Source of the DNA: Candidatus Velamenicoccus archaeovorus
GTDB taxonomy: Bacteria; Omnitrophota; Gorgyraeia; Velamenicoccales; Velamenicoccaceae
Direction of reading: 5' to 3'
Length of the DNA: 32,000 bases
NCBI RefSeq assembly: GCF_004102945.1
Contig: NZ_CP019384.1
Location: forward strand, 1,680,001-1,712,000
The notes under the pieces were generated by a model. It saw only the letters and a list, made by a program, of their open reading frames with translations, was not told the origin of the DNA and did no database searches. Below, piece after piece: positions 1-17,491 of the stretch (position 1 is its first letter; the number at the start of each line of letters is the position of its first letter). A program made the position numbers and the translations under genes.

Positions 1-1059
1 CAACTCCCAGATCCACTCCTCGGCGGCAGCGGCCACCTGCTGGAACCTCTTTTCCGCCTTATTGCGCTCGATGATTTCCCTGACCAAATCCTCTTTCTGC
101 CTGAAAAATCTGGATATCAACCGCGATATGTCCCCGAACTCACTGGTGTCTTTTTCCAAAGGGCGAAGGTAAACGGCGTTCTCTTTTTTCAATGCCTGGG
201 AAATAAACCCAAAAGGCCTGCTGAGCATCATCATCATGAATGCCGTGATGACGACGATAATAATAACGAGGAAATAAATAAACGTCGCTGTGACATTCCG
301 GGAGAATCGTTTGTAAATGTCCAGTTCCGCGGAATGGATACTGACATAAAGATATGCCGCCGGCCCTCCCCGCCAATCGAGAAGCTCCTTTGAAAAAATA
401 ATCATATTGGTATCCAAAAGGGTCTTGGAATCAGGGATCGCCGGTTTCATCCGGTCGATAACGATCTCGCCGCCGATCAGCTCCGAGAGATCGTCGAGAA
501 AACCCTGGTTCCAGAGGCGGCCGGCAAAAAAATACCCCTGGGGAGGCGTCTGTCTTTCCGGGTCTGCTGTCGGATGAATGGTGGCGCCCCGGATTTCCAT
601 CAGGCCTGCGCCTGTATACACAAAAAAATGACACAGCCGCTTTTTTGAAAAAATGTCCTTAATGATCTCGACGGAAAAAGGAAGGTCCTTGAGGCCGGAG
701 GCGTTTTCGCTCTGAATGGAATACGCCCGAGAAAGATCCGGGCGATACACCCATATCGCGTCCGCCTGATATGTCCCCAGGGCGGTTTCATCCATATTCT
801 GCCTGGCCCATGCCATGTCCTTGTTGCCGCGGACAAAACCCACCATGTCATCCCAATAGGTATAATCGACGGACAAACTTTTCAGGTTGGCGCCCTTGAG
901 AATGATCAGCTTGTTGAAATAAATCTTCTTTTCTTCGCTGCTCTGCTGAAACAGAAGATAAACGCGTTCATTTTCAAAGGTCTGGTGCAGATGCCTTGCG
1001 GCGAGCAGTATGACGGCGAGAAACAACAACAGCGAGGTTAATTTTGTCTGGACTCTCAT
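1..1059 (-). CDS. Sensor protein, N-terminal part (TM, periplasmic CHASE4-like domain, TM, HAMP-like linker, start of PAS). The 3' end runs off the window.
   Basis: Absent from the ORF track because it has no stop codon inside the window. Hand translation gives ATG at 1059 (AAGGGGA about 10 nt upstream) and 353 sense codons down to position 1; I checked every plus-strand triplet for tta/cta/tca and found none in frame. Sequence landmarks: MRVQTKLTSLLLFLAVILLAA (TM1); SVDYTYWDDMVGFVRGNKDMAWARQNM (the DYxYWDD block I associate with CHASE4); TATFIYFLVIIIVVITAFMMMML (TM2); RPFGFISQALKKE...GDISRLISRF (HAMP-like); EIIERNKAEKRFQQVAAAAEEWIWEL (PAS N-cap-like). Confidence 0.7.
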   Translation of the reverse strand, partial: MRVQTKLTSLLLFLAVILLAARHLHQTFENERVYLLFQQSSEEKKIYFNKLIILKGANLKSLSVDYTYWDDMVGFVRGNKDMAWARQNMDETALGTYQADAIWVYRPDLSRAYSIQSENASGLKDLPFSVEIIKDIFSKKRLCHFFVYTGAGLMEIRGATIHPTADPERQTPPQGYFFAGRLWNQGFLDDLSELIGGEIVIDRMKPAIPDSKTLLDTNMIIFSKELLDWRGGPAAYLYVSIHSAELDIYKRFSRNVTATFIYFLVIIIVVITAFMMMMLSRPFGFISQALKKENAVYLRPLEKDTSEFGDISRLISRFFRQKEDLVREIIERNKAEKRFQQVAAAAEEWIWEL

Positions 1060-1114
1060 GGTCTCATGTCCCCTTGATGATCTCTATCGCCCCTGTGCGT
1101 CTCATGCATCCTAT

Positions 1115-2647
1115 CTAATAGCTGAATGTCACGCTGGCCTCGATCTGATAAGCGCCGTCGGCCTCGCCGTCGCCCCGCAAAAAAGGAGAAAAAAGGCTGC
1201 CGTCGGTATCATCCCGCTCCTCTTTGTAATACTCGCCCGGAAAAAAATAGCCGCAGAACAGACTTAGCGCCACATGCTTGTTCAATTCATAGTTGAAATA
1301 CATGTCCAGCTCGTTACCCAGGTCAGTCGCAAGCGTCTTGGTTTCGCCCGCCCAGGTGCCCACACCTCTTTCGGCAGACCTCAAATACCACCAGTCAAAC
1401 GTCATAGAAAGCTTTTCCGTTATCTGAAAATCAAGGCCCAGACAGACAAGGATGAGGTTTTCGAACAAATAAGGGTCTGAAAAGGTGGTCGGACGACCGA
1501 CGCCGTAATTCAACCCGTTGCCGCCGCCCATAGCCACCAAAGGCATGCTTTCCGGACCGATGGGATAAATGGAATCCGCCAGGTTGGTGTTCAGGGGAGA
1601 ATAAACGCTGAAGGCGCGGTTTTTGCCGCTGGTGAACGTGTCGTCGCCCACCTGGTCCACGGGCACCTTGTTGCCGGAGGCGTAGGCGAATCTCGAATGG
1701 GGGACGATCCGATCGAATCTGTAAGCGGCATCCGCATAGACCAGGTAACCGCAATGTTCGACATCTTTACGGGCCGGGTCCGTAGACTTGGCCTCGCCGA
1801 AATTCCTGGCCGCCTCTATCCCTAGAGAAAACTTGTCCAACGTCGCATTCCAGGAAAGACCGCAGGTGCCCAGGATGTCCTCATGCGTAGACGTAGAAAA
1901 AAGATTCGTGCGTTTGGCTCCGGAATAATCCGACAGAACCTCCAGATAGGGCTGGAGGGAATAGTTTTTGAAGGTGAAAAGCGCGTCGGCGGCGAAGAAA
2001 TTGGCCTTGTTCGGCGTGTAATGAATCCCCTGTTCCCTTTCCTGGTCGATGCGCGGCCCGCGGTAGCTCTTGTTCGCCAGGTCGGGACGGCAATAATAAA
2101 GGGTCCACTTCAAATTCTCTTTTTCGCCGTATAAACTCACCGAATAATTCTCGTAGTCGGAAGGCACGGCGAGATTGTTACCGGCCTCATAGACAAAGAG
2201 GCCGCTTTTCAATCTGGAGGGCAGGCTATAGAGGCCGAAATCATACCAGAACTCCTCGAGGTGAGGCAGGAGTTCTGCGTCGCGGTATCTTTCCACCTTC
2301 GCCGTGGACGTCATGAGCGTATTGTGGATGAACACGGGCGCATCGTAGTCATACGGCCCGTTCCTCTCCAGCTTCAGATGCGCCTGGGGGCCGTCGTCTT
2401 TGAATGTGAGGTCAAAACCCAGACTGTAATCGATGCCGAGATACGCCGAGGAATCATCCTTGTTCTTGTTATCCAGGTCAACCGTGTTCTTTAAAACAAC
2501 AGCGTCAGTCCTGAAATAAGGAGTGACGCTGAAAAGGAAATTCTCGTTCTTGACGATCTCAATCTCTGCCGAGACAGCGCCGACAAAGCCAAAAAAACAA
2601 ACGACAACGAGCGGACCGCTCCGAGATATTTTCTGTTTTTTCCGCAT
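1115..2647 (-). CDS. Outer-membrane beta-barrel protein (porin-like, possibly alginate-export-type family)
   Basis: 510-aa ORF with a signal peptide (VVVCFFGFVGAVSA/EIE). Alternating amphipathic strands rich in Y/F/G/D/N run throughout, and the C-terminus is aromatic (ASVTFSY), as is typical of BAM substrates. The family assignment is only a guess from composition and length. Confidence 0.5.
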   Translation of the reverse strand: MRKKQKISRSGPLVVVCFFGFVGAVSAEIEIVKNENFLFSVTPYFRTDAVVLKNTVDLDNKNKDDSSAYLGIDYSLGFDLTFKDDGPQAHLKLERNGPYDYDAPVFIHNTLMTSTAKVERYRDAELLPHLEEFWYDFGLYSLPSRLKSGLFVYEAGNNLAVPSDYENYSVSLYGEKENLKWTLYYCRPDLANKSYRGPRIDQEREQGIHYTPNKANFFAADALFTFKNYSLQPYLEVLSDYSGAKRTNLFSTSTHEDILGTCGLSWNATLDKFSLGIEAARNFGEAKSTDPARKDVEHCGYLVYADAAYRFDRIVPHSRFAYASGNKVPVDQVGDDTFTSGKNRAFSVYSPLNTNLADSIYPIGPESMPLVAMGGGNGLNYGVGRPTTFSDPYLFENLILVCLGLDFQITEKLSMTFDWWYLRSAERGVGTWAGETKTLATDLGNELDMYFNYELNKHVALSLFCGYFFPGEYYKEERDDTDGSLFSPFLRGDGEADGAYQIEASVTFSY

Positions 2648-2738
2648 TGATCACCCTGAAAGCTCAAGGCCGGATTTGTCCACTGCACACAGCTAACCTA
2701 TTATATCTCGCCGCCAATGAAAAAATGTAAAAGATTTC

Positions 2739-4901
2739 CTAGGGGCGGCACGTATCGAGTTTTTGCCACAGGAGATCAGGAACAGGATAGCTGAGGCTGC
2801 GGGCCTTGCGGCAATGCGCTTCGGCCCGGCGGCAATCCCCGTTGAGGTAATAAGCAAAACAAATATTATTATGGACCAACCCTGAGCTCGGCGCGAGCGA
2901 AAGGGCCCGCTGGAAAACCGGGATCGCTTCCTGCGGCCGCCCCAGCGCGCAAAGAACGGAGCCGAGATTGGAGAGCGCGCCGATGTCCTCCGGCATCTTC
3001 TTGACGGCCTGACGGGCATAAGGCCATGCGGCCGCATACTCCTCTTTGGCCATCATCGCAGTCACCAGACCGTTATAAGCCGCGACATCCTGGGGCCCGG
3101 AAGCGACTGCCCGTTTGTAATGGGCGATCGCTTCGTCAAGTTTGCCCTGCTTGTAGAAAATCGCGGCCAGGGCCTCATGGGCCAGGCCGAAATCGGGATT
3201 CTCCTGCAAGGATCGGCGCAGGAAATCTTCGGCTTCGGGCAAGGCATTGCGGTTAACAGCCACAAGCGCAAGATTGTAGTATGCTTCGACGCGCGCCTCG
3301 GGATCCCTGGCGATGGATTCCCTGAGAAGCTCCTCGGCGCGGGCGGCATCGCCCAGCGAGGCATAGGCCACCGCCAGATTGATCTGATATCTATACCTCT
3401 TGTCCGGGTCTGCCTTGATGGCGGCCTCTGACACCTCGATGGCCTTGCGATATTGTCCTTCTGAAAGATAATAAAGGATGGCTAGGTTGGCGTTATAAAG
3501 CTGATAATATCCTTTATATAACGTATAGCGCTCGTCGATAATGCGCGACATCTCCGTGGAATCCATGAGCGCTTTTCTATATGACCCTTCATTGATGAAA
3601 GCCAGGCCCCGGTTATTGTAGGCGATGACCACCTGGGGATATTTTTTGAGGATGTCCGTCCAGAAGGTCACGCTTGTCTCCCAGACCCTGCAGCGCCTGT
3701 ATGTCGTCGTGGCGCAAAACAAGGCCACGGCCGCAAGCAAAACGACCAAAAAAACCCTTATTCCCGTCACTCGGCCGCCGATCTTGTCCCAAAGCCGGAA
3801 AAATCCCTCAGCCAGGATAAAGAAAATACCGATGGACGCCACATAGACAAACCGATCGGCCACTTTCGTATCCCCCATCGGAAGAAATTGCAGCAAAGGC
3901 AAAAGAGAAACGACAAAAAAGAGGCAGCCGAACACAACGGCGCGGCTGCGGCGGACCGCCAGGACGAAAACGGAAAAAAACGCCAAGGGCCAAAGATAAC
4001 TGCTGAGCCGATAGGCGGTCGCATAGAACACATCTGCCGGATAGTAGGCGGACAATCCCGCGGGCCAAAAGATCCGTCCCAGATAGAACGCAAGCGTGAA
4101 CAAAGGACCGTTGTGGAATCTCTCGGCGGCCGCCAGGCCGACGATATCGTGGCTGCCGCCATAAACGGAATAGAGCGCGACGAGGGCGAAAAACGCCGAC
4201 AGGACGAAAAAGGGAATCTTTTCAAGGAACATGTGGAGATCCGGCCGGCGGCGCAGGAAATAATCAAAACAAAAAAGAATGACCGGCAGGGTCACCGCCA
4301 TGGATTTGGACAATAACGAAAGAACGAAAAGCGCAAGGGTGAGCCAGAGATAACGGGACCGAAGCCCCCGCTGCAGATAATACACGTAACTGACAAGGGC
4401 CCCCAAATAGAAAAACGCATAGAGGACGTCCTTGCGCTCCGCCACCCACGCGACGCTCTCGGCGCGCAGGGGATGGATGCTGAACAAAAGCGCCACAAAA
4501 AACGCGAACGCGGCCCGGCCGCGCAGCAAGCGTACCAGCCAAAAGACCAAAAGGCCGTTCAAAAGATGCAAAAGCAAATTCGTCAAATGATAGCCGAAAG
4601 GCTCCAAATGCCCTATCTGGTAATTGACCAGGAAACTCAAAAGCGTCAACGGCTGGTAATTGCTGACATAATAAGACGTAAAGATCTTGTGCAGATTGGC
4701 CCCCGTCAAGGCCTTGATGGAAGAGTTATCCAGGACATAGACCTGGTCATCCCAGTTGATGAAACCGTTACGCAATGACGGCAGAAAAACCAAAAGGACA
4801 ATAACGGCAAGCAGGCAGGCAAGGATGAGCCTGGAATGTTCGGCATACCTGTCCAAAAAGGTCCTGCGGATGTCTTGTACGGATAACCTCGGCATGGACA
4901 T
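2739..4901 (-). CDS. Polytopic GT-C-type glycosyltransferase-like protein with C-terminal TPR repeats (TMTC/DUF1736-like architecture)
   Basis: The N-terminal ~430 aa has 10 or more hydrophobic segments and the block FINWDDQVYVLDN...YQPLTLLSF...GYHLTNLLLHLLNG, which I associate with TMTC-like GT-C proteins. The C-terminal ~300 aa is TPR (for example AYYNLALVAVNRNALPEAEDFLRRSLQENPDF). The track ORF extends to 4985, but codons 1-28 overlap a terminator hairpin (4972-5008), so I place the start at ATG 4901 (or 4895, MSMPRLSV). Confidence 0.65.
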   Translation of the reverse strand: MSMPRLSVQDIRRTFLDRYAEHSRLILACLLAVIVLLVFLPSLRNGFINWDDQVYVLDNSSIKALTGANLHKIFTSYYVSNYQPLTLLSFLVNYQIGHLEPFGYHLTNLLLHLLNGLLVFWLVRLLRGRAAFAFFVALLFSIHPLRAESVAWVAERKDVLYAFFYLGALVSYVYYLQRGLRSRYLWLTLALFVLSLLSKSMAVTLPVILFCFDYFLRRRPDLHMFLEKIPFFVLSAFFALVALYSVYGGSHDIVGLAAAERFHNGPLFTLAFYLGRIFWPAGLSAYYPADVFYATAYRLSSYLWPLAFFSVFVLAVRRSRAVVFGCLFFVVSLLPLLQFLPMGDTKVADRFVYVASIGIFFILAEGFFRLWDKIGGRVTGIRVFLVVLLAAVALFCATTTYRRCRVWETSVTFWTDILKKYPQVVIAYNNRGLAFINEGSYRKALMDSTEMSRIIDERYTLYKGYYQLYNANLAILYYLSEGQYRKAIEVSEAAIKADPDKRYRYQINLAVAYASLGDAARAEELLRESIARDPEARVEAYYNLALVAVNRNALPEAEDFLRRSLQENPDFGLAHEALAAIFYKQGKLDEAIAHYKRAVASGPQDVAAYNGLVTAMMAKEEYAAAWPYARQAVKKMPEDIGALSNLGSVLCALGRPQEAIPVFQRALSLAPSSGLVHNNICFAYYLNGDCRRAEAHCRKARSLSYPVPDLLWQKLDTCRP

Positions 4902-4971
4902 TGTCGTCGGAAAATGTTTCCAAAAAAGGGCGTCCTTCAGGCGCCCATTATAACAAAACCGGCAGGGTGTG

Positions 4972-5008
4972 GAAAGAAAAAACACCTCTCCTGGATCCAG
5001 GAGAGGTG
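4972..5008 (-). terminator. Rho-independent terminator after the OmpA-like gene
   Basis: Perfect 26-nt palindrome CACCTCTCCTGGATCCAGGAGAGGTG (4983-5008; 11-bp stem, GATC loop). On the minus strand it is followed by TTTTTTCTTTC (plus-strand A-run 4972-4982). It starts 28 nt after the stop at 5036. Confidence 0.8.
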
Positions 5009-5035
5009 TTTTCCTGCGATACCCATCAGAACAAA

Positions 5036-5665
5036 CTACTCTTCGGCCTTGACCTTCTCGACATGCGAAGGCAGGATGACGATTTCGACACGGCGGTTCT
5101 CCTGTTTACCTTCTTTCGTGTCATTGGATGCCACGGGCTGGTACTCTCCATAAGCCACAGCCGAGAGGCGTTCCGGCTTGACAGCCCCTTCATCCACAAA
5201 ATAATGCAAGACGGCCAAAGCGCGGGCGCTGGACAATTCCCAATTGGATTTCCAGCCGGAATACTTGATGGGATCTGAATCCGTGTGGCCTTCGATGGCC
5301 ACCCTTGAATCCGGAACATCTTTATTGATGACTTGGGCCACCTTCTCCAGCGAGACCTTGCCTTGGGGCCGCAGCGTATCCTTGCCTGAATCAAAAAAGA
5401 CCTCGGCAAGGAACGTGATCACCAACCCCCTCTCGGTCATCTCAAGCTTGGCCTTGTAATTCGCCAGTTCATCTTTGAGGTTAGCGGTCAGATCTTTCAG
5501 CGCCCTCTGCAAGTCCGCGTCCTTCTGTTCCTCCAGCGTCGCAACCTGTTCTCTGAGGCGCTCATTCTCCCTCTCTAAGGCCCGTTTTTTCGATAAGGTC
5601 GTGCAACCTGTCAACGTCAAAGCAAGAACGGAAATAATAACGCTCCTGAAAATAATTTTTGCCAT
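5036..5665 (-). CDS. OmpA/MotB-family peptidoglycan-binding lipoprotein with a coiled-coil linker
   Basis: Lipobox LTLTGC, a heptad-like segment (LERENERLREQVATLEEQK), and a C-terminal OmpA-like domain (IEGHTDSDPI...NWELSSARALAV...NRRVEIVILP). The track start 5710 overlaps the upstream gene. ATG 5665 (MAKIIFRS) has GAAAGGGG 6-8 nt upstream and leaves a 17-nt gap after the upstream stop. Confidence 0.8.
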   Translation of the reverse strand: MAKIIFRSVIISVLALTLTGCTTLSKKRALERENERLREQVATLEEQKDADLQRALKDLTANLKDELANYKAKLEMTERGLVITFLAEVFFDSGKDTLRPQGKVSLEKVAQVINKDVPDSRVAIEGHTDSDPIKYSGWKSNWELSSARALAVLHYFVDEGAVKPERLSAVAYGEYQPVASNDTKEGKQENRRVEIVILPSHVEKVKAEE

Positions 5666-5684
5666 GGACAAAGCCCCTTTCTTG

Positions 5685-5963
5685 TCAGCCGATCTTGTGG
5701 ATGGCTTCAAAACGCTTTCTTAATGCCTGCATATCCACCCGGCCGGCAAGCTCCACCTGATCGTTGATCAAAATAACAGGGGTCATCCCCGGGTTTACGC
5801 CCAAATCCGCCAATCCCGTCAATTCCTTCGTATGCACAAAGGTGAAAACGATGGTGATCTTGTTGGCAATGCCGATCGATCTGATGATATCCCTGATCTT
5901 GTTCTCCAGACCGTCGCACTTTGGGCACGGCTTGCAGACGATCTCTACCTTTTTGATGGCCAT
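5685..5963 (-). CDS. Small thioredoxin-fold protein (glutaredoxin-like, MTH895/TM0996-type) with a CPKC motif
   Basis: 92 aa, MAIKKVEIVCKPCPKCDGLENKIRD..., with a CxxC at the expected N-terminal position and the expected length and pattern for this family. A strong SD, AAGGAGG, lies 6 nt upstream of the ATG. Confidence 0.7.
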   Translation of the reverse strand: MAIKKVEIVCKPCPKCDGLENKIRDIIRSIGIANKITIVFTFVHTKELTGLADLGVNPGMTPVILINDQVELAGRVDMQALRKRFEAIHKIG

Positions 5964-5997
5964 ACCTGACCTCCTTAATTCCGCCCCTGGCGGAATT

Positions 5998-6095
5998 AAC
6001 TCCGAGCGTATCTTGAAAATTTATGGCTGCCCGTCCGAGCTCTGCGAGGACTGGTCGCAGACATAAATTGTCAAGATGGTTACGCGAGGAGTAAC
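5998..6095. repeat. Long-hairpin module LH1
   Basis: AACTCCGAG-CGTATCTTGAAAATTTATGGCTGC...GCAGACATAAATTGTCAAGATGGTTACG-CGAGGAGTAAC. About 28 bp can pair, interrupted by a GA/AG tandem mismatch and a 3-4 nt bulge. Confidence 0.8.
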
Positions 6096-6289
6096 GTTTT
6101 TTCCTTTAACCTTCCGCCCCTGGCGGAATTAGACCCTTCGCTTATTTGGTATTGCGAAGGTCTACCCCCTTGTGGGGTTAACTCCTCCACCCGGCCCCAT
6201 CGGATGGCCGCACCTTGCCTCATTCGGACGGCAAGTGCGCCACCTTCTGTGGCGGTGTGCCGCTTTCTGCTTGCCTGCTATGGCAGGCA

Positions 6290-6425
6290 AAGCGTATCTT
6301 GAGAATTTATGGCTGCACCTGGCCCCATCCGTAGGGCCAGTGTTCCGCTTTCTGCGGAACCCGTCCGAGCTCTGCGAAGGCAGGGTGCAGAGAAACATTT
6401 TCAAGATGCTTACGCAAGGGGTGAC
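6290..6425. repeat. Long-hairpin module LH2 (equals LH1 plus a 44-nt two-hairpin insertion at 6317-6360)
   Basis: GCGTATCTTGAGAATTTATGGCTGC [insert] CCGTCCGAGCTCTGCGA...GCAGAGAAACATTTTCAAGATGCTTACGC AAGGGGTGAC is collinear with LH1 apart from the insertion and a few substitutions. Confidence 0.8.
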
Positions 6426-6608
6426 GTTTATTTCCTTAATTTTGCCTATACCGAGGCGCTTCTTCCTCGCAAAATTAGACCCTCCGCTATGTGGATTACC
6501 TGGCTCAATCGGATGAGCCAGTATGCCGTCCAGCAGGACGCACCCGCTTATCCTATTAAAGCGGGGTGCCGCTTTCTGCGGTATGCGGAGGCCTACCCTT
6601 TCTGGGTT

Positions 6609-6720
6609 AACTCCGAGCCTGCGAGAGAAATTTTACACCGGATGGCCGTCCTGGCCGGCTGCGCCAGGCCGACGGCCTAGCCCTGGTGGAAAATTTCCGA
6701 GCGCCCAGGCGAGGAGTAAC
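6609..6720. repeat. Long-hairpin module LH3 (apex is the 40-nt block also present at 15694-15733)
   Basis: AACTCCGAGCCTGCGAGAGAAATTTTACA-CCGGATGGCCGTCCTGGCCGGCTGCGCCAGGCCGACGGCC-TAGCCCTGGTGGAAAATTTCCGAGCGCCCAGGCGAGGAGTAAC. Confidence 0.8.
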
Positions 6721-6743
6721 ACTTATTCCTTAACTCCTCCGCC

Positions 6744-7184
6744 CTATCTCAATATCCTCAATAAATTCAGCCCTGTTTTCGGATCTATCTCTTTTCTGGC
6801 CTTAATGCCCTTGAGTTCGAAAACAACGGCTTCGATCACCAGGAAAACATCCACTTTTTTACGCACACACCCGGTGAGGGCCTTGTCTTTTTTGCCCATG
6901 GCCGCATGCATGTGGATCTGGGGCCCTTTCTTGCCCGAAAACACGGTCCCCACACCCATGACTTCCCAGCCGCCGTCAAAAGGTTTCCAGTTCGGCTCCG
7001 GCGGCACAACGGCTTTTTTAGGCCCCGTGACCAGCTGGCCCCGGCGGAATGCCCCAAGAAAAACAAGAACGGCATTCTTCAGTCCTTCTTTTTTGACAAA
7101 ACCTTCCAGGGACTTCAGGATGTCGTCCTTATTCTCGAATTTAACCAGGAAAACACGGCCCAATCGGCCTTGGCTATATTGCAT
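6744..7184 (-). CDS. PPC (DUF296) domain protein
   Basis: MQYSQGRLGRVFLVKF...GTVFSGKKGPQIHMHAAMGKKDKALTGCV...VIEAVVFEL matches the PPC/DUF296 pattern (the two-His block xHxH followed by G-x-G...E-V). The track start at 7253 adds 23 poorly coding residues, so I prefer ATG 7184. Confidence 0.7.
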   Translation of the reverse strand: MQYSQGRLGRVFLVKFENKDDILKSLEGFVKKEGLKNAVLVFLGAFRRGQLVTGPKKAVVPPEPNWKPFDGGWEVMGVGTVFSGKKGPQIHMHAAMGKKDKALTGCVRKKVDVFLVIEAVVFELKGIKARKEIDPKTGLNLLRILR

Positions 7185-7281
7185 CGTCGTCGATAACCGT
7201 TCATCCCAGCGGACACAAACAACAGGAACGCAGGATCTCTTAAGTGCCGCCAAAAAAGAGAAAAACCAGAGTGACTAAGGC

Positions 7282-7455
7282 CTACTTCTTCCCGGATTTC
7301 TTCCTGCCGGATGATTTTTTGGAAGAGGTCTTCTTGCGGGCCATAGGCTTGCCGCAACACCAGATGGTCTGCTGTGAAATTCCGCAGGCATCCACGATGA
7401 CTTCCCTGCCGCAAGGCACACACACCAACCGAGAACCCTTTTTAACTTTAGCCAT
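7282..7455 (-). CDS. Desulforedoxin-like Cys4 mini-protein with a Lys/Ser-rich basic tail
   Basis: MAKVKKGSRLVCVPCGREVIVDACGISQQTIWCCGKPM follows the desulforedoxin / Dfx N-domain pattern (CxxCG-xxV-xV ... CCG-xx-M; compare D. gigas Dx [27 protein letters not shown]). The tail is ARKKTSSKKSSGRKKSGKK. The SD GAGGGGG lies 5 nt before ATG 7455. The track start 7491 is upstream of the predicted TSS. Confidence 0.55.
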   Translation of the reverse strand: MAKVKKGSRLVCVPCGREVIVDACGISQQTIWCCGKPMARKKTSSKKSSGRKKSGKK

Positions 7456-7489
7456 GCGCACCCCCTCTGACTTTCTATCGGTTAAAGTC

Positions 7490-7517
7490 ATTGTATTCTT
7501 TTGACAGCAACTTTCAA
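7490..7517 (-). promoter_or_regulatory. Sigma70-like promoter for the desulforedoxin-like/PPC/thioredoxin-fold/OmpA-like unit
   Basis: Minus strand TTGAAA (7517..7512), 16-nt spacer, TACAAT (7495..7490). The predicted TSS near 7483 gives a ~28-nt leader containing the SD. Confidence 0.45.
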
Positions 7518-7604
7518 GAAATATTTAGGGTGGGAGCGGACCTTCTTGTAAAAAAGATCCGTGTTCTCCGTCGGAAAAACAACTCTCCGCGATCGCCGGA
7601 CATC

Positions 7605-8168
7605 TCAACGTCCGCCCTTCATCAGGGCGAGGGTTTCGGACCTTGTCTTCTCGTTCTCTTTGAAGACCCCGCGCACGGCGCTAGTCACGGTGGTGATGCC
7701 CGGTTTTTTAATACCTCGCATGCTCATGCACAGGTGTTCGGCCTCAATTACAACCATAACCCCAAGAGGTTTAAGAGTTTCCATAATAACCGTAGCGATC
7801 TGGGTCGTTAACCTCTCCTGGACCTGAGGCCTGCGGGAAAGGATCTCAACAACGCGTGCGATCTTGCTTAAACCTGTCACGCGGCCGCCCTTCGGGATAT
7901 ACGCAACGTGGGCGCGGCCGATAAACGGCAAAAGGTGATGCTCACAGATGGAATAAAGCGGGATGTCTTTTAAAAGAACGATCTCCTCATGTTTCTGATC
8001 CAGGACGACTTCCAGCTCTTTCTTGGGATCGGCTGAAAGGCCGGAAAGAATCTCTGCGTACATATCCGCGACACGCTCAGGGGTCTCGAGCAAGTCCTGC
8101 CTTTTGGGGTCTTCCCCGACGGCCTCAAGGATCATCTTGACGGCTTTGATCAATTTTTGCTTATTCAT
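7605..8168 (-). CDS. folE: GTP cyclohydrolase I (FolE type I)
   Basis: 187 aa with [16 protein letters not shown](I/V)KK and EAVGEDP..., the canonical FolE motifs at the canonical length. Confidence 0.92.
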
Positions 8169-8180
8169 GTCGCCCTCGCT

Positions 8181-9617
8181 TCATTTACCGATACAGAATT
8201 TAGAAAAAATGACATCCAGGACATCCTCGCGAAAAACCTCCCCCGTCAGCTCTCCGAGACCGTCGACCGCCCGGCGCAGGTCCGCAGCGCCAAACTCGGG
8301 AGAAAGGCCTTTTTGCAAAGAATCAATCGACCGCTCCAGCGATGCGGCGGAGTTTTTGAGGATTTCAATATGGCGGACGTTGGAAACCAGGACGTCCGCA
8401 GATAAAAGGCCGGGATCATGGAACACGGCCCCGAAAATCTCGTCTTCCAGTTGTTTTATGCCTTCCCGTTCCAGAGCAGACACATGGACAAGCGGCCTTA
8501 CGCCGAACAGGCCCCGCAGCCGGCTGGCGTCAACCCGGGCAGGCAGATCACTCTTGTTGATGACGCCGATCATCTTTTTTAACGGATTGACCTGCGACAA
8601 GAGCGCCTCATCCTCGCGACCCAAGGGCGCCGACCCGTCGAAGACAAACAATAAAAGATCACAGGCGTCGATGGCCTTGCGCGTCCGTTCCAAAGCAAGA
8701 CGCTCGATTTCATCATGGGCTTCCAGGATCCCCGCCGTGTCCACAAAACAAACCGCCAGCCCCCTGATGGAAACGCACTCTTCGATCGTATCCCGCGTCG
8801 TGCCTGCGATGGCCGTCACAATGGCCCGGTCGGTCCGAAGGAGCGCATTGAGCAAAGACGACTTCCCGACATTCGGCCGTCCATAAATAACGACCTTCAG
8901 TCCCTCGCGAACGATACGACCGCAAAAACTCCCCTCCAAGAGGGAGCGAAGCGCCTGCAGGGTGGTCCTCAACACCGATAAGGCGTCATCGGGAACGCCG
9001 CCAAGCTCCTCGTCGGAAAAATCGAGCCGCGCCTCTATGTCTGCCAGGACATCGAGCATCCGGCGCCGCAACCCCTTGATCCTGCCCGAAAGCTCACCGG
9101 AAAGCTGCGTCAGGCTGGTTTTCAGGGCCAGCTCGCTCTTGGCCTGGATGATATCAAGGACTGCCTCCGCCTGGGCAAGGTCCAGCCGGCCGTTCAAAAA
9201 TGCCCGCCTGGTGAATTCGCCGGGAATAGCGAGTCTGGCGCCTTTAGCCAGCAATAATTCCAGGATAACGGACAAGACGCGGGGGCCGCCGTGAGAATTG
9301 ATCTCAACGACATCTTCCCGCGTATAGCTATGGGGGGAACGCATCAAGGAAACGACGACCTCATCCACGATGAGTTCGGGCATCGCCTGCGGTGTCCTGC
9401 CGGCGCGTTCGAACACCTCTTTGTCGCGCACGATCCAGCCGTAGCAGAGAGAAAATGTCCGGGCGGCAGACAGCGGCTTTCCTCTCTTCGATGAAAAAAC
9501 TGCATCGGCAACGGCAATGGCCCCGGCCCCGCTCAAACGCACGATCCCCACGGCACCTTGACCGACGGGCGTGGCGATCGCGGCAATCGTATCGTTCATA
9601 GAAACTAGTGCTGCCAT
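8181..9617 (-). CDS. mnmE: tRNA modification GTPase MnmE (TrmE)
   Basis: N-terminal DTIAAIATPVGQGAVGIVRLSG, G domain GRPNVGKSSLLNALL / DTAG / NKSD, and the C-terminal FCIGK tetrapeptide motif. The start could be ATG 9617 or 9599 (MNDTIAAI). Confidence 0.93.
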   Translation of the reverse strand: MAALVSMNDTIAAIATPVGQGAVGIVRLSGAGAIAVADAVFSSKRGKPLSAARTFSLCYGWIVRDKEVFERAGRTPQAMPELIVDEVVVSLMRSPHSYTREDVVEINSHGGPRVLSVILELLLAKGARLAIPGEFTRRAFLNGRLDLAQAEAVLDIIQAKSELALKTSLTQLSGELSGRIKGLRRRMLDVLADIEARLDFSDEELGGVPDDALSVLRTTLQALRSLLEGSFCGRIVREGLKVVIYGRPNVGKSSLLNALLRTDRAIVTAIAGTTRDTIEECVSIRGLAVCFVDTAGILEAHDEIERLALERTRKAIDACDLLLFVFDGSAPLGREDEALLSQVNPLKKMIGVINKSDLPARVDASRLRGLFGVRPLVHVSALEREGIKQLEDEIFGAVFHDPGLLSADVLVSNVRHIEILKNSAASLERSIDSLQKGLSPEFGAADLRRAVDGLGELTGEVFREDVLDVIFSKFCIGK

Positions 9618-10993
9618 AAAGATCTGGCTTCCCCGACGACAAAAAGGGATCCCGTGATCACAGCCACCTCTTGAGGCTGCATCTGATGGCTCAAAATATC
9701 CATGGCCTCTTCCACCGAGTGCGTGACAAGAGGGGATTTCTTATGGAAAAGCCCTTTAAGGTGTTTTTCGGGATCCGCCGCCCTCGGATGGTTGGCCTTC
9801 GTGAGGATCACCCGGTCCGCCATGGTCCCCAAAAGATCCGAGAGCCCCTTGAGGTCTTTATCCGAAGAGGCGCCGAAGACAAGCCATTTCTTGAAACCCT
9901 CGAATTCCTTCTCGATGAAATGAGCAAGACGGTAAGCCGACTCCCTGTTATGGGCGCCATCCAGGATGACAAAAGGCTGGGTTGAAACCACTTCCAGCCT
10001 GCCCGGCCAGTAAGCATTTCTGAGGCCTGAAACCATCGCCTCGACTGGAACGCGTATGCCGTAAAGGCCCAGTGCCTCAACCGCCGCCAGCGCCACAGAG
10101 GCGTTGGTCAACTGGTGCTCCCCCAGCATTCGAATATCAAAAAAATGAGAGCTGCCGTTGAGCCCGCGGTAAAAGAACCGCTGGGTCAAAAGGTCATGCG
10201 ACATCTCTTTATAACGGAAATCCTTGTTCATCACGAAAAACATCGTGTTTTGCGAACGGCACCGCCGCCTGACCACCTGGGCCGCTTCTTTCATCTGGGC
10301 GGCGCTGATGCAGATGCCAAAACCCTGCGAGGTCTTCTTGTTGGCGGCCTTGATGATGCCGGCCTTCTCGAAGGCGATCTCCGGCAGCGTCTTGCCGAGG
10401 ATATGCTCGTGATCGTAACTGATCGGGGTGATCACCGAGACCAAAGACGACGCCACATTGGTCGCATCCAGGCGGCCCCCCAGACCCGTCTCAAGCACGA
10501 CGGCGTCCGTTTTCTTGTCTGCGAAATATTTGAACGCCATCGCCGTCAAGACTTCAAAAAATGTCAGAGGACCATAAGGCGCGGAAAGGCGATCAAATTG
10601 TTCCAGCGCCCCCATCAGGCTTTCGAGCAAAGCGGCAAAATCATTTTTAAGGATCATCCCCGGAAACATCGTATGACCCTCCGCCGCATGACTCGGCTCG
10701 AGGATCCTGATGCGTTCCCGCATATCCTGCAGATGCGGCGAGGTATAAAGGCCGGTGCGATAGCCTGCATCACGCAGGATCTGCGCGATATAACAGGACG
10801 TGGAGCCCTTCCCTTTTGTGCCGGCGACATGAACGATGGAAAGCGTATCCTGAGGGCTGCCGATCAGCCGCAGAAGGGCCGCGACCCGATCGAGCTTGAA
10901 GGCCGTCCGGTAGGTCTCCGGCGGCCGGCGCTCGTAATTGATCAGTTTTTCCAGATATGCCAGGGCGTTTTCGTAGGTCATGAATGAGCACAT
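9605..10993 (-). CDS. folC: Folylpolyglutamate synthase / dihydrofolate synthase (FolC)
   Basis: Mur-ligase-family P-loop HVAGTKGKGST, length and motif order typical of FolC, and folate-pathway neighbours. The start is more likely ATG 10981 (MTYENALAYL), because 10993 lies inside a hairpin arm. Confidence 0.9.
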   Translation of the reverse strand: MCSFMTYENALAYLEKLINYERRPPETYRTAFKLDRVAALLRLIGSPQDTLSIVHVAGTKGKGSTSCYIAQILRDAGYRTGLYTSPHLQDMRERIRILEPSHAAEGHTMFPGMILKNDFAALLESLMGALEQFDRLSAPYGPLTFFEVLTAMAFKYFADKKTDAVVLETGLGGRLDATNVASSLVSVITPISYDHEHILGKTLPEIAFEKAGIIKAANKKTSQGFGICISAAQMKEAAQVVRRRCRSQNTMFFVMNKDFRYKEMSHDLLTQRFFYRGLNGSSHFFDIRMLGEHQLTNASVALAAVEALGLYGIRVPVEAMVSGLRNAYWPGRLEVVSTQPFVILDGAHNRESAYRLAHFIEKEFEGFKKWLVFGASSDKDLKGLSDLLGTMADRVILTKANHPRAADPEKHLKGLFHKKSPLVTHSVEEAMDILSHQMQPQEVAVITGSLFVVGEARSLWQH

Positions 10994-11156
10994 GACTTAT
11001 GGAGCTCTCGCGCGGCATAAGTCATTCGTGCGAATTTACCCCCACACCAATGAATACGATCGAAGATCACCGCATCATTGATGAGAGGGTTAACTCGGCC
11101 AAGCAACTACCGTTGAACTGCCGCTTCGCGGGCAACTTCCGTAAGTTGCGGCCTCG
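10992..11156. repeat. Hairpin-rich purH-folC spacer, a degenerate relative of the repeat family
   Basis: Perfect 10-bp stem ATGACTTATG/CATAAGTCAT (10992-11001 / 11016-11025). A three-hairpin cluster at 11093-11156 is closed by CTCGGCC...GGCCTCG, containing hairpins 11104-11115, 11121-11131 and 11132-11149. The GGTTAACTC motif at 11088-11096 is shared with the GGTTAACTCC boxes at 6176-6185 and 6605-6614. Confidence 0.5.
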
Positions 11157-12707
11157 TTAATGCTTGAAATGCCTGACGCCTGTGACTACCATGGCGATGC
11201 CGGCTTTGTCGGCGGCGCGGATGATCTCTTCGTCGGCGATAGAGCCGCCGGGTTGGATGACGGCCCTGATCCCTGCTTTTTTGGCCAAGGCAACGTTATC
11301 GGATTTAGGAAAGAAGGCGTCGCTGGCTAGGACAGCACCGCGGCTGCGCCGGCCGGCCCTTTTGACGGCCATGAACATCGAATCCACGCGGCTGGTCTCG
11401 CCCATGCCGATGCCGACGGTCGCGGTGCCGTGCGCCAGGACGATCGCGTTGGACTTGACGTGCTTGACGACTTCCCAGGCGAACAACAAAGAAATCATCT
11501 GGGCGCGCGTCGGTTTTTTGTGCGTGACGACCTTGAGATCCTTTGCAGCGGCATCTCTCGCATCCTTGTCCTGGACGAGAAAACCGCCGTCGATCCTCTT
11601 GGCGTCCCATGCCTGGGGATCTGCGGAAACCCCCGCGGCCATTTGAAGAAGACGCAGGTTCTTTTTGGCCTTGAGCAACGCCAAGGCCGCCGGCTCATAC
11701 GCAGGGGCCAGGATGCATTCCAAAAATCCGCTCTTCAAAAGAGCCCGGGCTGTTTTGGCGTCGACCGGCCTATTGAGACCGACAATCCCTCCGAAAGCGG
11801 AAAGCGGATCGCTCTGCCAGGCGTCATGAAACGCACGATCAAGGGTCTTGGCCTGGGCCACTCCCGTAGGATTCGTATGCTTGACGATACAAGCGCAGGG
11901 CCTGACAAAACCCCTGATATTTTCCAGGGCGGCATTCAGGTCCAGGTAATTATTAAAGGAAAGCTCTTTGCCATGGAGCTGCTTGGCGTTGACCAGGGTG
12001 GCAGCGGATTCAGATCCCTCCCAGCGGTAGAGACCGGCCTCCTGATGAGGATTCTCTCCGTAACGCAGCGACGCCGCCTTGGACAAAACTACATCCAGGC
12101 GTCCGGGAAACCGGTCCTGCGGCCCCCTTAAATACTGCGCAATGGCCGCATCGTAGCGTGCCGTCAGCTCAAAGACATCCGCAGCCAGGCTTTTAAGGAG
12201 CGATACCGGAAGACAGCCGTCATTCTCTTTCAGCGCTTCGATGATCGACGGATACACCTGCGGCCGGGAGACAACGGCGACAGAAGCATGATTTTTTGCG
12301 GCTGAACGCAACATCGACGGACCGCCGATATCGATATTCTCGATCGCCTCCTCTTCGGTAACGCCGGCCTTTGCAACAGTCTTTTCAAAAGGGTAAAGAT
12401 TGACCACGACCATGTCAATCAGGCCGATGCCGCAACTCTCCGCTTGTTTCAAATGCTCAGGATTGTCGCGGCGCGCCAGAAGGCCGCCATGGATTTTCGG
12501 ATGCAGGGTCTTGACGCGGCCGTCGAGCATCTCCGGGAATCCCGTGTAATCCGACATCTCGACAACATCGATCCCCGCTTCTTTCAAAGCCCTGGCCGTC
12601 CCGCCGGTCGAAACGATCTCAACGCCGAAATCCGAGAGGACTTTCGCAAGTTCCACGACGCCCGTTTTATCCGAAACGCTGATCAACGCCCTTTTTATCT
12701 TCAGCAC
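11157..12707 (-). CDS. purH: Bifunctional AICAR transformylase / IMP cyclohydrolase (PurH)
   Basis: 516 aa with the N-terminal MGS-like RALISVSDKTG, central and C-terminal AICARFT blocks, and the C-terminal VTGVRHFKH. GTG start at 12707 with GGAGAA upstream. Confidence 0.95.
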   Translation of the reverse strand: MLKIKRALISVSDKTGVVELAKVLSDFGVEIVSTGGTARALKEAGIDVVEMSDYTGFPEMLDGRVKTLHPKIHGGLLARRDNPEHLKQAESCGIGLIDMVVVNLYPFEKTVAKAGVTEEEAIENIDIGGPSMLRSAAKNHASVAVVSRPQVYPSIIEALKENDGCLPVSLLKSLAADVFELTARYDAAIAQYLRGPQDRFPGRLDVVLSKAASLRYGENPHQEAGLYRWEGSESAATLVNAKQLHGKELSFNNYLDLNAALENIRGFVRPCACIVKHTNPTGVAQAKTLDRAFHDAWQSDPLSAFGGIVGLNRPVDAKTARALLKSGFLECILAPAYEPAALALLKAKKNLRLLQMAAGVSADPQAWDAKRIDGGFLVQDKDARDAAAKDLKVVTHKKPTRAQMISLLFAWEVVKHVKSNAIVLAHGTATVGIGMGETSRVDSMFMAVKRAGRRSRGAVLASDAFFPKSDNVALAKKAGIRAVIQPGGSIADEEIIRAADKAGIAMVVTGVRHFKH

Positions 12708-15591: not shown

Positions 15592-15604
15592 TTCTTATCT
15601 CCCC

Positions 15605-15775
15605 TTGATTTTGCCACGAGTGGGTGAGTTTACCTTGCAAAATCAACTCCAAGCTTGCTCGGTCTGCTGAAACAGCAGACCAGGGAAATTTTTCCGGATG
15701 GCCGTCCTGGCCGGCTGCGCCAGGCCGACGGCCTTCCCTGGAAAAATTTACAAGCGCATAAGCAAGGAGTCAAAC
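15605..15775. repeat. Repeat modules in the EF-G-paralogue leader: short hairpin (15605-15646) plus long hairpin LH4 (15645-15775)
   Basis: TTGATTTTGC-N22-GCAAAATCAA, then AACTCCAAG...GGTCTGCTGAAACAGCAGACC...GGGAAATTTTT-[40-nt block 15694-15733]-...GGAAAAATTT...CAAGGAGTCAAAC. Confidence 0.8.
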
Positions 15776-15896: not shown

Positions 15897-15925
15897 ATTA
15901 TAATAGATAAACCTCAAAGCGTCAA
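15897..15925 (-). promoter_or_regulatory. Near-consensus sigma70 promoter driving the EF-G-paralogue unit
   Basis: Minus strand TTGACG (15925..15920), 17-nt spacer, TATAAT (15902..15897). It lies just downstream of the kamA terminator. The predicted TSS near 15890 implies a ~300-nt leader. Confidence 0.6.
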
Positions 15926-16028: not shown

Positions 16029-17252
16029 TTATTCTACATAGGTGTAAATCTTACCTTTATAATTACGCAATACGTGTTTGCCCTTATCCTGCGAAATCAG
16101 GTAGCTGGGGCCCACGGGGATCTTGCCGCCGCCTCCCGGAGCATCCACCACGTAGGTCGGGACGGCATAGCCAGAGGTGAAACCGCGCAGCTTTTCAATG
16201 ATATTGATGCCTACCGCCACGGGCGTGCGGAAATGCGCCGTGCCCTTGACCGGGTCGCATTGATAAATGTAATACGGCCGCACGCGCACCTTCAAGAGCT
16301 CATGCATGAGCTTTCTCATGATGTAGGGTTTGTCGTTGATGCCTTTCAGAAGCACAGTCTGACTGCCCAAAGGAATGCCCGCATCAGCCAGCATGTCCAA
16401 GGCTGCCTTGCAACGCCGCGAAACCTCCCGCGGATGGTTAAAATGGATGCTGATCCAAAGCGGTGAATATTTTTTGAGCATCGCAATAAGGGATTCAGTG
16501 ATCCTGTGGGGGAGAGTGACCGGGACGCGTGTGCCCAGGCGGACAAATTCCACATGCGGTATGCTCTTGATCTTCCTGATGATCTCTTCAAGCTCGCTAT
16601 CTTCAAGCATCAGGGGATCGCCTCCTGAGATCAAGACATCGCGGATCTTCTTGTTGGAACGGATATAATCCGCGGCCGCGTCGAGCGCTTTGGCATTCAT
16701 GGCATGCGATACCTTCTCGCCCACGAGGCGCCTGCGCGTGCAATGGCGGCAATACATGGCGCACTTCTCCGTGCTCAACAAAAGGACCCTGTCGGGATAC
16801 CTGTGGACCAAGCCGCTGGCCGGAGAATCACGGTCTTCGGCGCACGGATCGACGAATTCGTTAGCGCCAAACTGGAATTCTTGTTTCAAAGGGACGGCCT
16901 GCCTGCGGATGGGACACTCGGGATCGTCAGGGTCCATCAAGGTCGTCCAATAAGGTGTGATGGCCATCGACAAACGGCCGTTGGACTTTTTGATACCCTC
17001 CTCTTCTTCCGGCGTCAGGATAAGAACCTTGGAGATCGCCTCAAGGCTGTGGATACGGTTGTCGATCTGCCAATGCCAATCTTCCCACTGCTCTTCAGGA
17101 ACGTCCTTCCAAAGCGCGACCTTGCGATAGTCGCCGATACAGCCGCGGCGCACCAGCGTCTGCGGTGACGCATGTTCCAATGTCTGGGCTTGGCTTGCCA
17201 GTTGACCCTCCTTGATTTTGCCTATATTGAAGTATTTTCCCTGCAAAATCAA
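16029..17252 (-). CDS. kamA: KamA-family radical-SAM aminomutase (lysine 2,3-aminomutase-like)
   Basis: CAMYCRHCTRRR (the CxxxCxxC cluster), GGDPL, SLRMAITPY-like RLSMAITPYW, and PTYVVDAPGGGGKIP. The N-terminus aligns with clostridial KamA from about residue 40 (YRKVALWKDVPEEQWEDWHWQ). The track start (TTG 17252) lies inside a repeat hairpin. The real start is uncertain: CTG 17201 just after SD GGAGGG, or a downstream TTG or GTG. Confidence 0.88.
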   Translation of the reverse strand: MILQGKYFNIGKIKEGQLASQAQTLEHASPQTLVRRGCIGDYRKVALWKDVPEEQWEDWHWQIDNRIHSLEAISKVLILTPEEEEGIKKSNGRLSMAITPYWTTLMDPDDPECPIRRQAVPLKQEFQFGANEFVDPCAEDRDSPASGLVHRYPDRVLLLSTEKCAMYCRHCTRRRLVGEKVSHAMNAKALDAAADYIRSNKKIRDVLISGGDPLMLEDSELEEIIRKIKSIPHVEFVRLGTRVPVTLPHRITESLIAMLKKYSPLWISIHFNHPREVSRRCKAALDMLADAGIPLGSQTVLLKGINDKPYIMRKLMHELLKVRVRPYYIYQCDPVKGTAHFRTPVAVGINIIEKLRGFTSGYAVPTYVVDAPGGGGKIPVGPSYLISQDKGKHVLRNYKGKIYTYVE

Positions 17253-17491
17253 CCCCGAGCTTACGCAGAAAATTTATGCCGACGCGTCGTGGCATAAATT
17301 TTCAAGTGCTTAAGCGAGGGGTGAAAATGCATTCCTTAATCCTGCCTCTGGCAGGATTAACTCCGAGTGTAGCTGAAAAATTTGTGGATGCCCGCCGAGA
17401 CCTGGCCCAGGCCAAAGGCCGGGCCGAGACGAGGCTGGGTGCATCCAGAAATTTCAGCTGTTTACACGAGGAGTCAAGTCGATTCCTTAAT
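17212..17491. repeat. Repeat modules between the ATP-grasp gene and kamA: short hairpin, LH5, short hairpin, LH6, TTCCTTAAT box
   Basis: TTGATTTTGC-N21-GCAAAATCAA (17212-17252). LH5 at 17251-17326 (AACCCCGAG...AGAAAATTTATGCC...GGCATAAATTTTC...CGAGGGGTGAAA). TTAATCCTGCC-TCT-GGCAGGATTAA (17336-17360). LH6 at 17359-17478 (AACTCCGAGTGTAGCTGAAAAATTTGTGGATGC...GCATCCAGAAATTTCAGCTGTTTACACGAGGAGTCAAG). TTCCTTAAT at 17332-17340 and 17483-17491. Confidence 0.8.

Follow-up and report, generated by a model that had tools for sequence, protein, structure and literature searches.

Interspersed palindromic repeats are usually regarded as selfish or structural DNA located after genes. REP and BIME elements lie mostly after genes or between convergent genes, alternate in orientation, are not known to carry a Shine-Dalgarno (SD) sequence and co-occur with a RAYT gene, Correia and ERIC elements insert in either orientation with a TA duplication, and none of REP/BIME, ERIC and Correia is known to be tied to start codons. 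Mycobacterial interspersed repetitive units (MIRUs), said to have been described by Supply et al. in 1997, are reportedly 40-100-bp direct repeats in operon spacers. They lie in one orientation, carry short open reading frames (ORFs) that overlap the stop and start codons of the neighbouring genes, so coupling translation, and reportedly act in the expression of the downstream cistron. The 5' stabilisers and STAB-SD elements of Gram-positive bacteria protect mRNA by means of a 5'-proximal hairpin and/or a non-initiating SD-like box, and the RNase III sites of phage T7 early genes are long imperfect intercistronic hairpins, which are cut to give stable mRNAs with a short leader and an SD. Correia and ERIC/IRU elements are 100-150 bp long, palindromic and transcribed, and they are RNase III/RNase E targets that change mRNA stability in an orientation-dependent manner; the pneumococcal BOX, RUP and SPRITE elements have terminal inverted repeats and target-site duplications and are over-represented between convergently transcribed genes (PMC3049150). 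BOX itself is modular, 67-637 bp long, has extensive predicted RNA structure, is transcribed and is reported to affect the expression of its neighbours (PMC3049150). Here we analyse a 780-nt island of hairpin modules at positions 5964-6743 of a 32,000-nt stretch of the genome of Candidatus Velamenicoccus archaeovorus, a member of the Omnitrophota (contig NZ_CP019384.1, positions 1,680,001 to 1,712,000; this whole stretch is called the window, and coordinates refer to it), and show how this locus compares.

An earlier note on this DNA had described the island as part of a multi-copy mosaic family of palindromic modules located in spacers and leaders. Both the family and its location stand. What the note overlooked, because the plus strand was read, is that the arrays end in an SD sequence and are locked in orientation and position to start codons. 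We put at roughly 55% the probability that the three tandem units of the island are copies of a modular, recombining and lineage-specific Omnitrophota cassette, which serves as a 5' leader or intercistronic element and acts in mRNA. We have found no description of Omnitrophota hairpin repeats in the searchable literature.

Anatomy of the island

Because all substantial ORFs of the window sit on the minus strand, we read the region on that strand, to which all features below belong. The island (5964-6743) extends from the stop codon of its 5' neighbour, a PCC-domain gene (PF03479; TAG 6746-6744), to the start codon of a thioredoxin-like gene (Thioredoxin_3, trx; ATG 5963-5961), as the earlier note had it. 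Its minimum free energy (MFE) fold reaches -346 kcal/mol on the minus strand (shuffles about -280, z = -12.3, 17 hairpin loops) and -354 kcal/mol on the plus strand (shuffles about -270, z = -11.6, 19 hairpin loops), in line with the "about 20" stem-loops once counted by eye. In other words, the hairpin-built nature of the island is real and lies far outside what chance would give. Open frames of 80-123 codons can be traced in it, but none of the four ORFs inside or overlapping it has a Pfam match, no reading frame is kept open across the family copies (each of the six frames holds stops, in 23-38 of 38 copies), and the indels between orthologous islands disregard the reading frame. That no real gene spans 5964-6743, as had been claimed, is borne out on each of these counts.

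Each of the three tandem units opens with an unpaired SD-like leader, the pseudo-SD (TTAAGGAAATAAACGTT), continues with a long imperfect hairpin (ACTCCTCG / stem / GAAAATTT / variable apex / AAATTTTC / stem / CTCGGAGTTAA) and closes with one or two short hairpins, namely connector i (TTAATTCCGCC-AGR-GGCGGAATTAA), connector ii (TTAATTTTGC...GCAAAATTAA) and module c (CCCCACAAGGGG together with a hairpin that has a GTAG head and a bulged G). Only the last unit goes on to TTAAGGAGG, 5-9 nt and a start codon, here AAGGAGG, 6 nt and ATG. The SD-like box of the cassette reads UUAAGGAAAUAAACGUU on the mRNA-sense strand, the TTCCTTAA box is the reverse complement of the SD-like TTAAGGAA, and the long hairpin is closed by ACUCC/GGAGU. 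The shared frame of outer stem, core, apex and complement that had been proposed for the long hairpins is genuine, and it is seen on the minus strand.

From its 5' end, the island starts at 6718-6743 with GGCGGAGGAGTTAA, a sequence similar to a long-hairpin 3' end, to which the pseudo-SD leader GGAATAAGTGTT is joined directly; the same sequence stands directly after the PCC stop codon in three other loci (L023, L069, L070). Long-hairpin unit 3 follows (6607-6717, ACTCCTCG...CTCGGAGTTAA, apex B), in which a 41-nt block (6638-6678) is identical to 15694-15734. Next come a module c at 6476-6606 (mini-hairpin CCCAGAAAGGG plus the GTAG-headed hairpin GGCCTCCGC/GCGGAGGGTC), its loop enlarged by four nested small hairpins, a type ii connector hairpin at 6437-6476 (TAATTTTGC...GCAAAATTA) and the pseudo-SD leader TTAAGGAAATAAACGTC (6423-6439). 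Unit 2, found like unit 3 by both the frame pattern and the covariance model, spans 245 nt (6178-6422, frame ACCCCTTG...GGAGGAGTTAA) and carries nested hairpin insertions at its apex and 3' base. The extent of 6290-6425 previously given to it is only its inner stem, and the AACTCC box (GGAGTTAA) that it was said to lack is present at 6178-6185, displaced outward by the inserted small hairpins. A second module c (6130-6177, CCCCACAAGGGGG plus TAGACCTTCGC...GCGAAGGGTCTA), an internal variant of connector i (6111-6130, ATTCCGCCAGGGGCGGAAGG) and the pseudo-SD leader GTTAAAGGAAAAAACGTT (6093-6110) lead to unit 1 (5996-6092), which has the canonical 97-nt form with apex A and was recognised by the covariance model at 134 bits. 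The array closes with the terminal connector hairpin TTAATTCCGCC-AGG-GGCGGAATTAA (5975-5999, a perfect 11-bp stem) and with the element-supplied SD AAGGAGG at 5970-5976.

The sense fold leaves bases unpaired that are 43% A. An internal loop CCUCGC/GCUCGG, with two pyrimidine-pyrimidine mismatches, occurs twice per long hairpin in all family copies (in unit 1 at 6077-6092 / 5996-6010 and in the apex at 6030-6056), the basal one being swapped for Watson-Crick pairs (CGCGAGGAGT) in some copies. The head of module c is GTAG(A/G)CC (39 sense copies) and that of some apex B copies is GTAGGCCGTC, other apex B copies having CTAGG; the long-hairpin frame and the connectors are without GTAG. We note that the GTAG head and bulged-G hairpin of module c recall the REP sequences recognised by RAYT transposases. 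Within the main island there is neither a promoter-like site (a TTGACA-like left arm was considered) nor, on the sense strand, a terminator-like site.

Distribution of the family

Outside the window, the frame pattern has true copies in Ca. Omnitrophica UBA6210 (7 matches), which has a locus syntenic with the window, and in two metagenome-assembled genomes (MAGs) labelled Planctomycetia; a second pattern picks out 32 metagenome loci. The family thus has the further copies that were expected of it. The other genome matches of the frame pattern look like chance in unrelated DNA. A covariance model built from 38 distinct 96-98-nt units matches none of 23 such chance genome loci and none of the 80 viral loci listed. 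For those listed loci a viral origin is rejected, their matches to the relaxed frame pattern being chance, and no plasmid similarity was found. The model scores true copies at about 100-137 bits in sense and about 35 bits in antisense, and the orientation of a copy can therefore be called. As for the host lineage, the thioredoxin-like protein is 82% identical to a thioredoxin annotated as Candidatus Omnitrophica, and an exact match to it lies in GCA_041890195.1 on a contig that begins 134 nt upstream of the gene, in the island region.

The census comprises 81 pattern-defined units in 44 loci, with three units set aside as chance matches in coding DNA (L044, L047, L057:2878). The shortest unit has 74 nt and the longest 280, 97 nt being the commonest length, and there is a size series of 97/141/185/245/262/280 nt, which arises because identical small hairpins, e.g. 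a 44-nt two-hairpin module and the 20-nt CCTGCCTGCCGGCAGGCAGG, are inserted at differing places.

Rfam 15 gives no match at gathering score in the whole window, and at E <= 1 on 5900-6800 only a chance 20-bit match to WLE3 (gathering score 50). No known Rfam 15 RNA family, be it a riboswitch, leader, ribozyme, small RNA (sRNA) or an RNA of HEARO/OLE type, is therefore recognised at its gathering threshold. The statement that the island matches no named element survives this comparison, and none of the outcomes that the earlier note had named against itself (a known family, a lack of copies outside the window, a real gene across the island) was found.

Short-read assemblies often end inside the islands, as at the contig ends of L035, L024, L037, L053, L054, L066 and L067. 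The repeats therefore fragment Omnitrophota MAGs at the leaders of highly expressed genes.

Position, orientation and Shine-Dalgarno supply

The position census covers 56 islands, 51 of which are uncut by a contig end. In all 51, the same strand continues with AT(T/C)AAGGAG, a spacer of 5-9 (up to 12) nt and the codon at which a real ORF starts. The last long hairpin lies 28-34, 47-54, 75-80 or 95-99 nt from the start codon (167 nt in one island), the distance class being set by which connectors are present. The sub-modules obey the same rule: module c has a sense to antisense count of 39:3, connector i one of 31:0, the two-hairpin module one of 35:0, apex B one of 9:0 and the pseudo-SD leader one of 37:0, which makes 151:3 for all of them.

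Most window genes without the element have a weak SD or no canonical one, and we observe that consensus AAGGAGG is in the window almost confined to the 3' end of the repeat cassette. The GGAGG lies directly 3' of the connector stem and outside it. Between SD and start, bases are unpaired with a mean probability of 0.46 when the upstream sequence is native and 0.41 when it is shuffled (higher with the native one in 34 of 45 cases, p = 0.0014). An SD-sequestering RNA thermometer or riboswitch platform is rejected on these grounds, and sequestration by the anti-SD-like ACUCCUC is disfavoured as well, since in every fold this string is paired with a GGAGU partner of its own.

Many islands are intercistronic. 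Apart from the PCC-trx spacer, cassettes stand before the gamma, delta and beta cistrons of a pyruvate:ferredoxin oxidoreductase (por) operon, i.e. at three junctions of locus L040 (825-3639), and one cassette stands at the amtB-glnK junction of L065 (1319-1450), so that several cistrons of one operon can each own a cassette. A co-directional ORF lies upstream of at least 33 of 54 islands; naive ORF calls of the upstream neighbour are unreliable here, as several "divergent" calls are antisense shadows of real genes.

Conservation of structure

The alignment of the 38 units has 31 pairs, and 98.2% of its pair cells are standard pairs. Compensatory double changes are found in 10 of the 31 pairs of the long hairpin (94 cells); none of 500 shuffles equals this covariation signal, and slid-partner controls collapse. 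The connector stems covary as well (TTCCGCC/GGCGGAA, TCTCGCC/GGCGAGA, TCCCACC/GGTGGGA, TTTTGCC/GGCAAAA). What is more, the TTAA...TTAA flanks change to TTGA...TCAA in 3 of 3 variants and are never mixed. Since TTGA covaries with TCAA, these flanks are stem pairs and not target-site duplications, which rules out a TTAA duplication of the piggyBac or IS5-like kind. Conservation extends to the unpaired linker AAGGAAATAAACGTT, and the connector hairpin has a GGAG box on either side, the two being about 25 nt apart.

Turnover at orthologous sites

At the PCC-trx spacer, the alleles run from empty to full. In L076-79, whose thioredoxin is 82% identical to that of the window, it is 43 nt long, holds no module and has the native SD AAAGGGAGGG; in L072-74 (thioredoxin 89% identical) its 91 nt comprise module c, a connector and the SD. 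It measures 315 nt in L069/71 (98% identical) and 289 nt in L070 (also 98%), where the modules are unlike those of L069/71 despite an identical Trx protein. UBA6210 (L023) has 460 nt with three long-hairpin units, its flanking DNA being about 81-85% identical to L069, and the window has 780 nt with three units and nested insertions. The filled alleles share the end ATTAAGGAGGTCAGGTATG, the L070 allele ending in ATCAAGGAGGCCAGGTATG, and unit 3 of L069 has collapsed via a deletion between 7-nt direct repeats (GCTCGGA).

Two further sites behave alike. The trx-ompA junction is empty in the window, L072 and L023 (TGA-caagaaaggggctttgtcc-ATG) and filled in L069/71 and L070 by different subfamilies, with the native SD AAAGGGG replaced; the only direct repeat at this filled/empty pair is the SD-like CAAGAA / CAAGGA. 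Between folE and a zinc-ribbon gene, the window, L069 and L076 have a native untranslated region (UTR) of 35 nt and L023 has an island of about 650 nt behind the same promoter. This promoter, a promoter-like TTGAAA-16-TACAAT at 7517-7490, is kept in four genomes (window, L069, L076, L023). The zinc-ribbon gene of the window (7282-7455, CxxC...CC, 57 aa) falls below the 80-aa cut-off of the ORF list. Identity of the flanking genes is 91-92% between the window, L069 and L070 and falls to 81-85% when these are compared with L072 and L023, and L076 has no family member across 8.3 kb of synteny.

In this sense, filled alleles replace the native SD and do not merely interrupt a spacer. It follows from the allele series that, over short evolutionary times, cassettes come, go and change their make-up at the DNA level.

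Other copies in the window and genes served

The count of six long-hairpin units in the 32-kb window, all in minus-strand leaders or spacers, is confirmed, as is the recurrence of the same modules at 15605-15775 and 17212-17491, by the frame pattern and the model. The covariance model matches 5996-6109 (134 bits, E = 2e-32), 6607-6734, 6282/6319-6439, 17357-17488 and 17249-17339; the copy at 15643-15770 was caught by the frame pattern and missed by the model. The "degenerate" copy reported at 10992-11156 did not hold up, as the covariance model, run with filters off, gives no match there at E <= 1. The spacer in question, between purH and a Mur-ligase gene, holds a GGCCGAGTTAACCC string resembling the 3' end of a long hairpin, which may be an old remnant or chance.

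The second island (17207-17491, two units) precedes a KamA-like gene. Its unit A (17357-17491) consists of a pseudo-SD leader and a long hairpin (17357-17474), and the remainder (17207-17356) comprises connector i, unit B (17249-17322), connector ii and the SD AAGGAGG (17213-17207). The mechanical TTG start of the KamA-like ORF (17252) falls inside a long hairpin; the true start is probably the CTG at 17201-17199, 5 nt past AAGGAGG, or a downstream TTG or ATG, and it is likely that gene callers over-extend genes into hairpin islands.

The third island (15599-15770, one unit) has a long hairpin at 15643-15770 with apex B and an extra hairpin, then connector ii and the SD-like AAGGGGAG, followed by ATG 15591 of an EF-G-like gene. 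Upstream of it there is a promoter-like TTGACG-17-TATAAT (15897-15925, minus strand, 11/12 consensus), and this hairpin therefore sits in a 5' UTR. A strong intrinsic terminator (16007-15980, 12-bp stem plus T run) lies after the KamA-like gene and before that promoter. Canonical sigma-70 promoters and intrinsic terminators thus appear to be in use in the host, and the hairpin repeats belong to neither class; the sole promoter-like match inside any window island is a weak one (9/12) at 15773-15745.

Besides the thioredoxin-like, EF-G-like and KamA-like genes of the window, the genes served include, by Pfam, those for ribosomal proteins S13, S18, S21, L19 and L25, EF-Ts, GroEL, Hsp20, desulfoferrodoxin (superoxide reductase), the gamma and beta subunits of pyruvate:ferredoxin oxidoreductase (PFOR), glutamate dehydrogenase, Amt, chorismate synthase, LemA, an M48 protease, the GMP synthase C-terminal domain, a PNPOx-like protein and a nucleoside phosphorylase. 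Translation genes account for 7 of 44 distinct products, an excess put at roughly ten-fold, with P about 3e-4, against an assumed 3% background. Upstream of the cassette in L043, an open frame of at least 3889 codons (1-11670) runs off the locus, consistent with the giant genes reported for Omnitrophota.

Discussion

Why do we favour a leader that acts in cis on its own mRNA? Such a leader fits because the cassettes are sense-oriented, keep a fixed register to the start codon and carry the SD at the foot of a maintained 11-bp clamp, and because they consist of self-contained hairpins with A-rich loops in 5' UTRs or between cistrons, in front of highly expressed targets. From these features we infer effects at the RNA level, both on translation and on mRNA stability. 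Namely, the array would be transcribed together with its downstream gene, here between the PCC-domain and thioredoxin-like genes. Since every module would fold on itself, upstream RNA should be unable to pair with the ribosome-binding site, and the SD, left naked at the foot of the clamp, could give a strong, context-independent translation start. The 5' hairpins and long duplexes would probably either shield the 5' end from nucleases or serve as a site of double-strand-specific processing, by which cistrons are separated. As for their origin, the cassettes are proposed to spread between leaders, overwriting the native ribosome-binding site, most likely via recombination or template switching at their SD-like ends, a route favoured because target-site duplications are absent. 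Small hairpins inserted one within another would lengthen them, and slippage between short direct repeats would shorten them.

Several of our own results weigh against this reading. The gain in SD accessibility is modest. G.U pairs, 34 in sense and 28 in antisense, show no clear strand preference, the alignment holds 9 G.U cells against 6 A.C cells, and the antisense strand folds about 7% more stably; the latter is because the UC/UC loops read there as tandem sheared G.A in a CGAG context. The two- and three-unit arrays, and the speed with which units come and go among genomes that are about 92% identical, suggest that unit number is weakly constrained, and the cassettes are not essential, because L076 lacks them at all three compared sites. 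Finally, the tie to highly expressed genes could reflect a copying process that prefers strong SDs.

The main rival, which we regard as possible though rather unlikely, is that the cassettes are selfish, SD-targeting mobile DNA, i.e. non-autonomous palindromic elements of the type of a miniature inverted-repeat transposable element (MITE), REP or REPIN, whose effects on expression are incidental. They would be copied by an enzyme acting on single-stranded DNA hairpins and would insert at, or recombine with, SD sequences, which would account for their presence in front of start codons alone, insertion being tolerated because a replacement SD is carried along. The gain/loss polymorphism at three orthologous sites, the 44-nt and 20-nt hairpins nested at differing positions, the 41-nt block shared identically by two loci and the SD-like direct repeats (AAGGA) at both unit ends are all as this explanation would have them. 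So are the scarcity of wobble pairs, the slightly more stable antisense fold with its tandem G.A, the REP-like GTAG head on module c and some apex B copies, and the breaks of public assemblies within islands. The unit also has the terminal inverted repeats of a MITE, in that the long hairpin begins with ACTCCTCGCG and ends with CGCGAGGAGT or CGCTCGGAGT, the whole being an imperfect palindrome. However, there is no target-site duplication, the TTAA flanks covarying as stem pairs, and the orientation is fixed, in 51 of 51 islands and in sub-modules at 151:3, which speaks against a MITE; even nested hairpins with asymmetric loops and the conserved bulged G keep the 100% lock of the islands. Conservation of the unpaired linker AAGGAAATAAACGTT and the lack of family members among the 80 viral loci listed point the same way. 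A tblastn search with an IS200 TnpA query over 416 kb of family-bearing loci gave no Y1 transposase below E = 1, a weak negative, as the query was approximate.

Of lower probability still, and in our view clearly improbable, is a shared operator of a post-transcriptional regulon, comparable to eukaryotic 5'TOP, in which the hairpin would bind an RNA-binding protein (CsrA-like or other) and co-regulate translation-machinery, chaperone and redox genes. The invariant unpaired positions with the twofold CCUCGC/GCUCGG loop, the coherent gene set, the two GGAG boxes around the connector hairpin and the GGA count of the island (22 sense vs 14 antisense) would suit it. That said, by eye most GGAs belong to AAGGAA linkers or to a GGAG that pairs with ACUCC, and those in hairpin loops fall on either strand, depending on the copy; the apex is freely swapped between types A, B and simple, unit number differs between close relatives, the binding protein is hypothetical, and the gene set includes unrelated functions (LemA, PNP, chorismate synthase). 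A sponge RNA of the CsrB/RsmZ type is unsupported too, given those strand-variable loop GGAs and an island that is a leader and not a separate sRNA gene. An integron attC site does not fit, as the ends GTTACTC / GAGTTAA misfit RYYYAAC...GTTRRRY and the units adjoin without ORFs, and neither does a CRISPR array, as the direct-repeat families are irregularly spaced (85-611 nt) and 60-96% identical. To the last reading, that the island is a small protein or peptide gene, or an artefact of misassembly or chance, we give practically no credence: the Pfam null, the closed frames and the frame-blind indels refute it, and independent assemblies contain the same modules.

A bolder reading, which we put forward as unlikely yet worth stating, is that the cassettes are "mobile ribosome-binding sites", a new class of element that homes to SD regions, overwrites the native initiation region with a structured leader and a consensus SD, and so, throughout an uncultured phylum, rewires how strongly expressed and intercistronic genes are expressed. 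It might involve a dedicated enzyme or an RNA-templated copying step, together with an RNA-binding or processing factor recognising the invariant loops.

The repeat family is tied one-to-one to translation starts. It brings its own SD and takes the place of native ribosome-binding sites ahead of genes for ribosomal proteins, elongation factors, chaperones and core metabolism. If the RNA role is true, the cassettes would be a natural counterpart of the synthetic "RBS insulator" parts (RBS, ribosome-binding site), a portable expression module for a phylum without a cultured model organism and a route for gene expression to evolve in jumps. In practical terms, the islands break short-read assemblies, and mechanical ORF extension sets false starts inside them.

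Comparison with known systems

With BIME, REP and REPIN sequences the family shares a mosaic of short imperfect palindromes in transcribed extragenic DNA, compensatory changes in the hairpins and a copy number that differs between relatives, and with the BOX elements of Streptococcus pneumoniae (boxA-boxB(n)-boxC) it shares a modular, size-variable build. In contrast to REP and BIME, however, 51 of 51 Omnitrophota islands are sense-oriented leaders ending in an SD, and unlike BOX the family is never found between convergent genes, is without target-site duplication and ends in an SD. The analogy to BIME and BOX drawn in the earlier note is therefore apt for the mosaic architecture and fails for location and likely role.

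MIRUs resemble the family in being sense-oriented tandem units in operon spacers, as at PCC-trx, in the por operon of L040 and at amtB-glnK in L065, whereas the Omnitrophota units are hairpins, have no conserved ORF and supply a canonical SD. Like the Correia elements of Neisseria and the ERIC/IRU elements of enterobacteria and Yersinia, they are palindromic repeats that would be carried in mRNAs, and their possible action is similar. The STAB-SD elements and T7 sites offer a comparison of possible action only, being single-locus features, unlike a dispersed and recombining repeat family. All in all, we rate the family as an interspersed palindromic mosaic repeat, which is a known kind of element, but an unusual one in that it carries and installs ribosome-binding sites.

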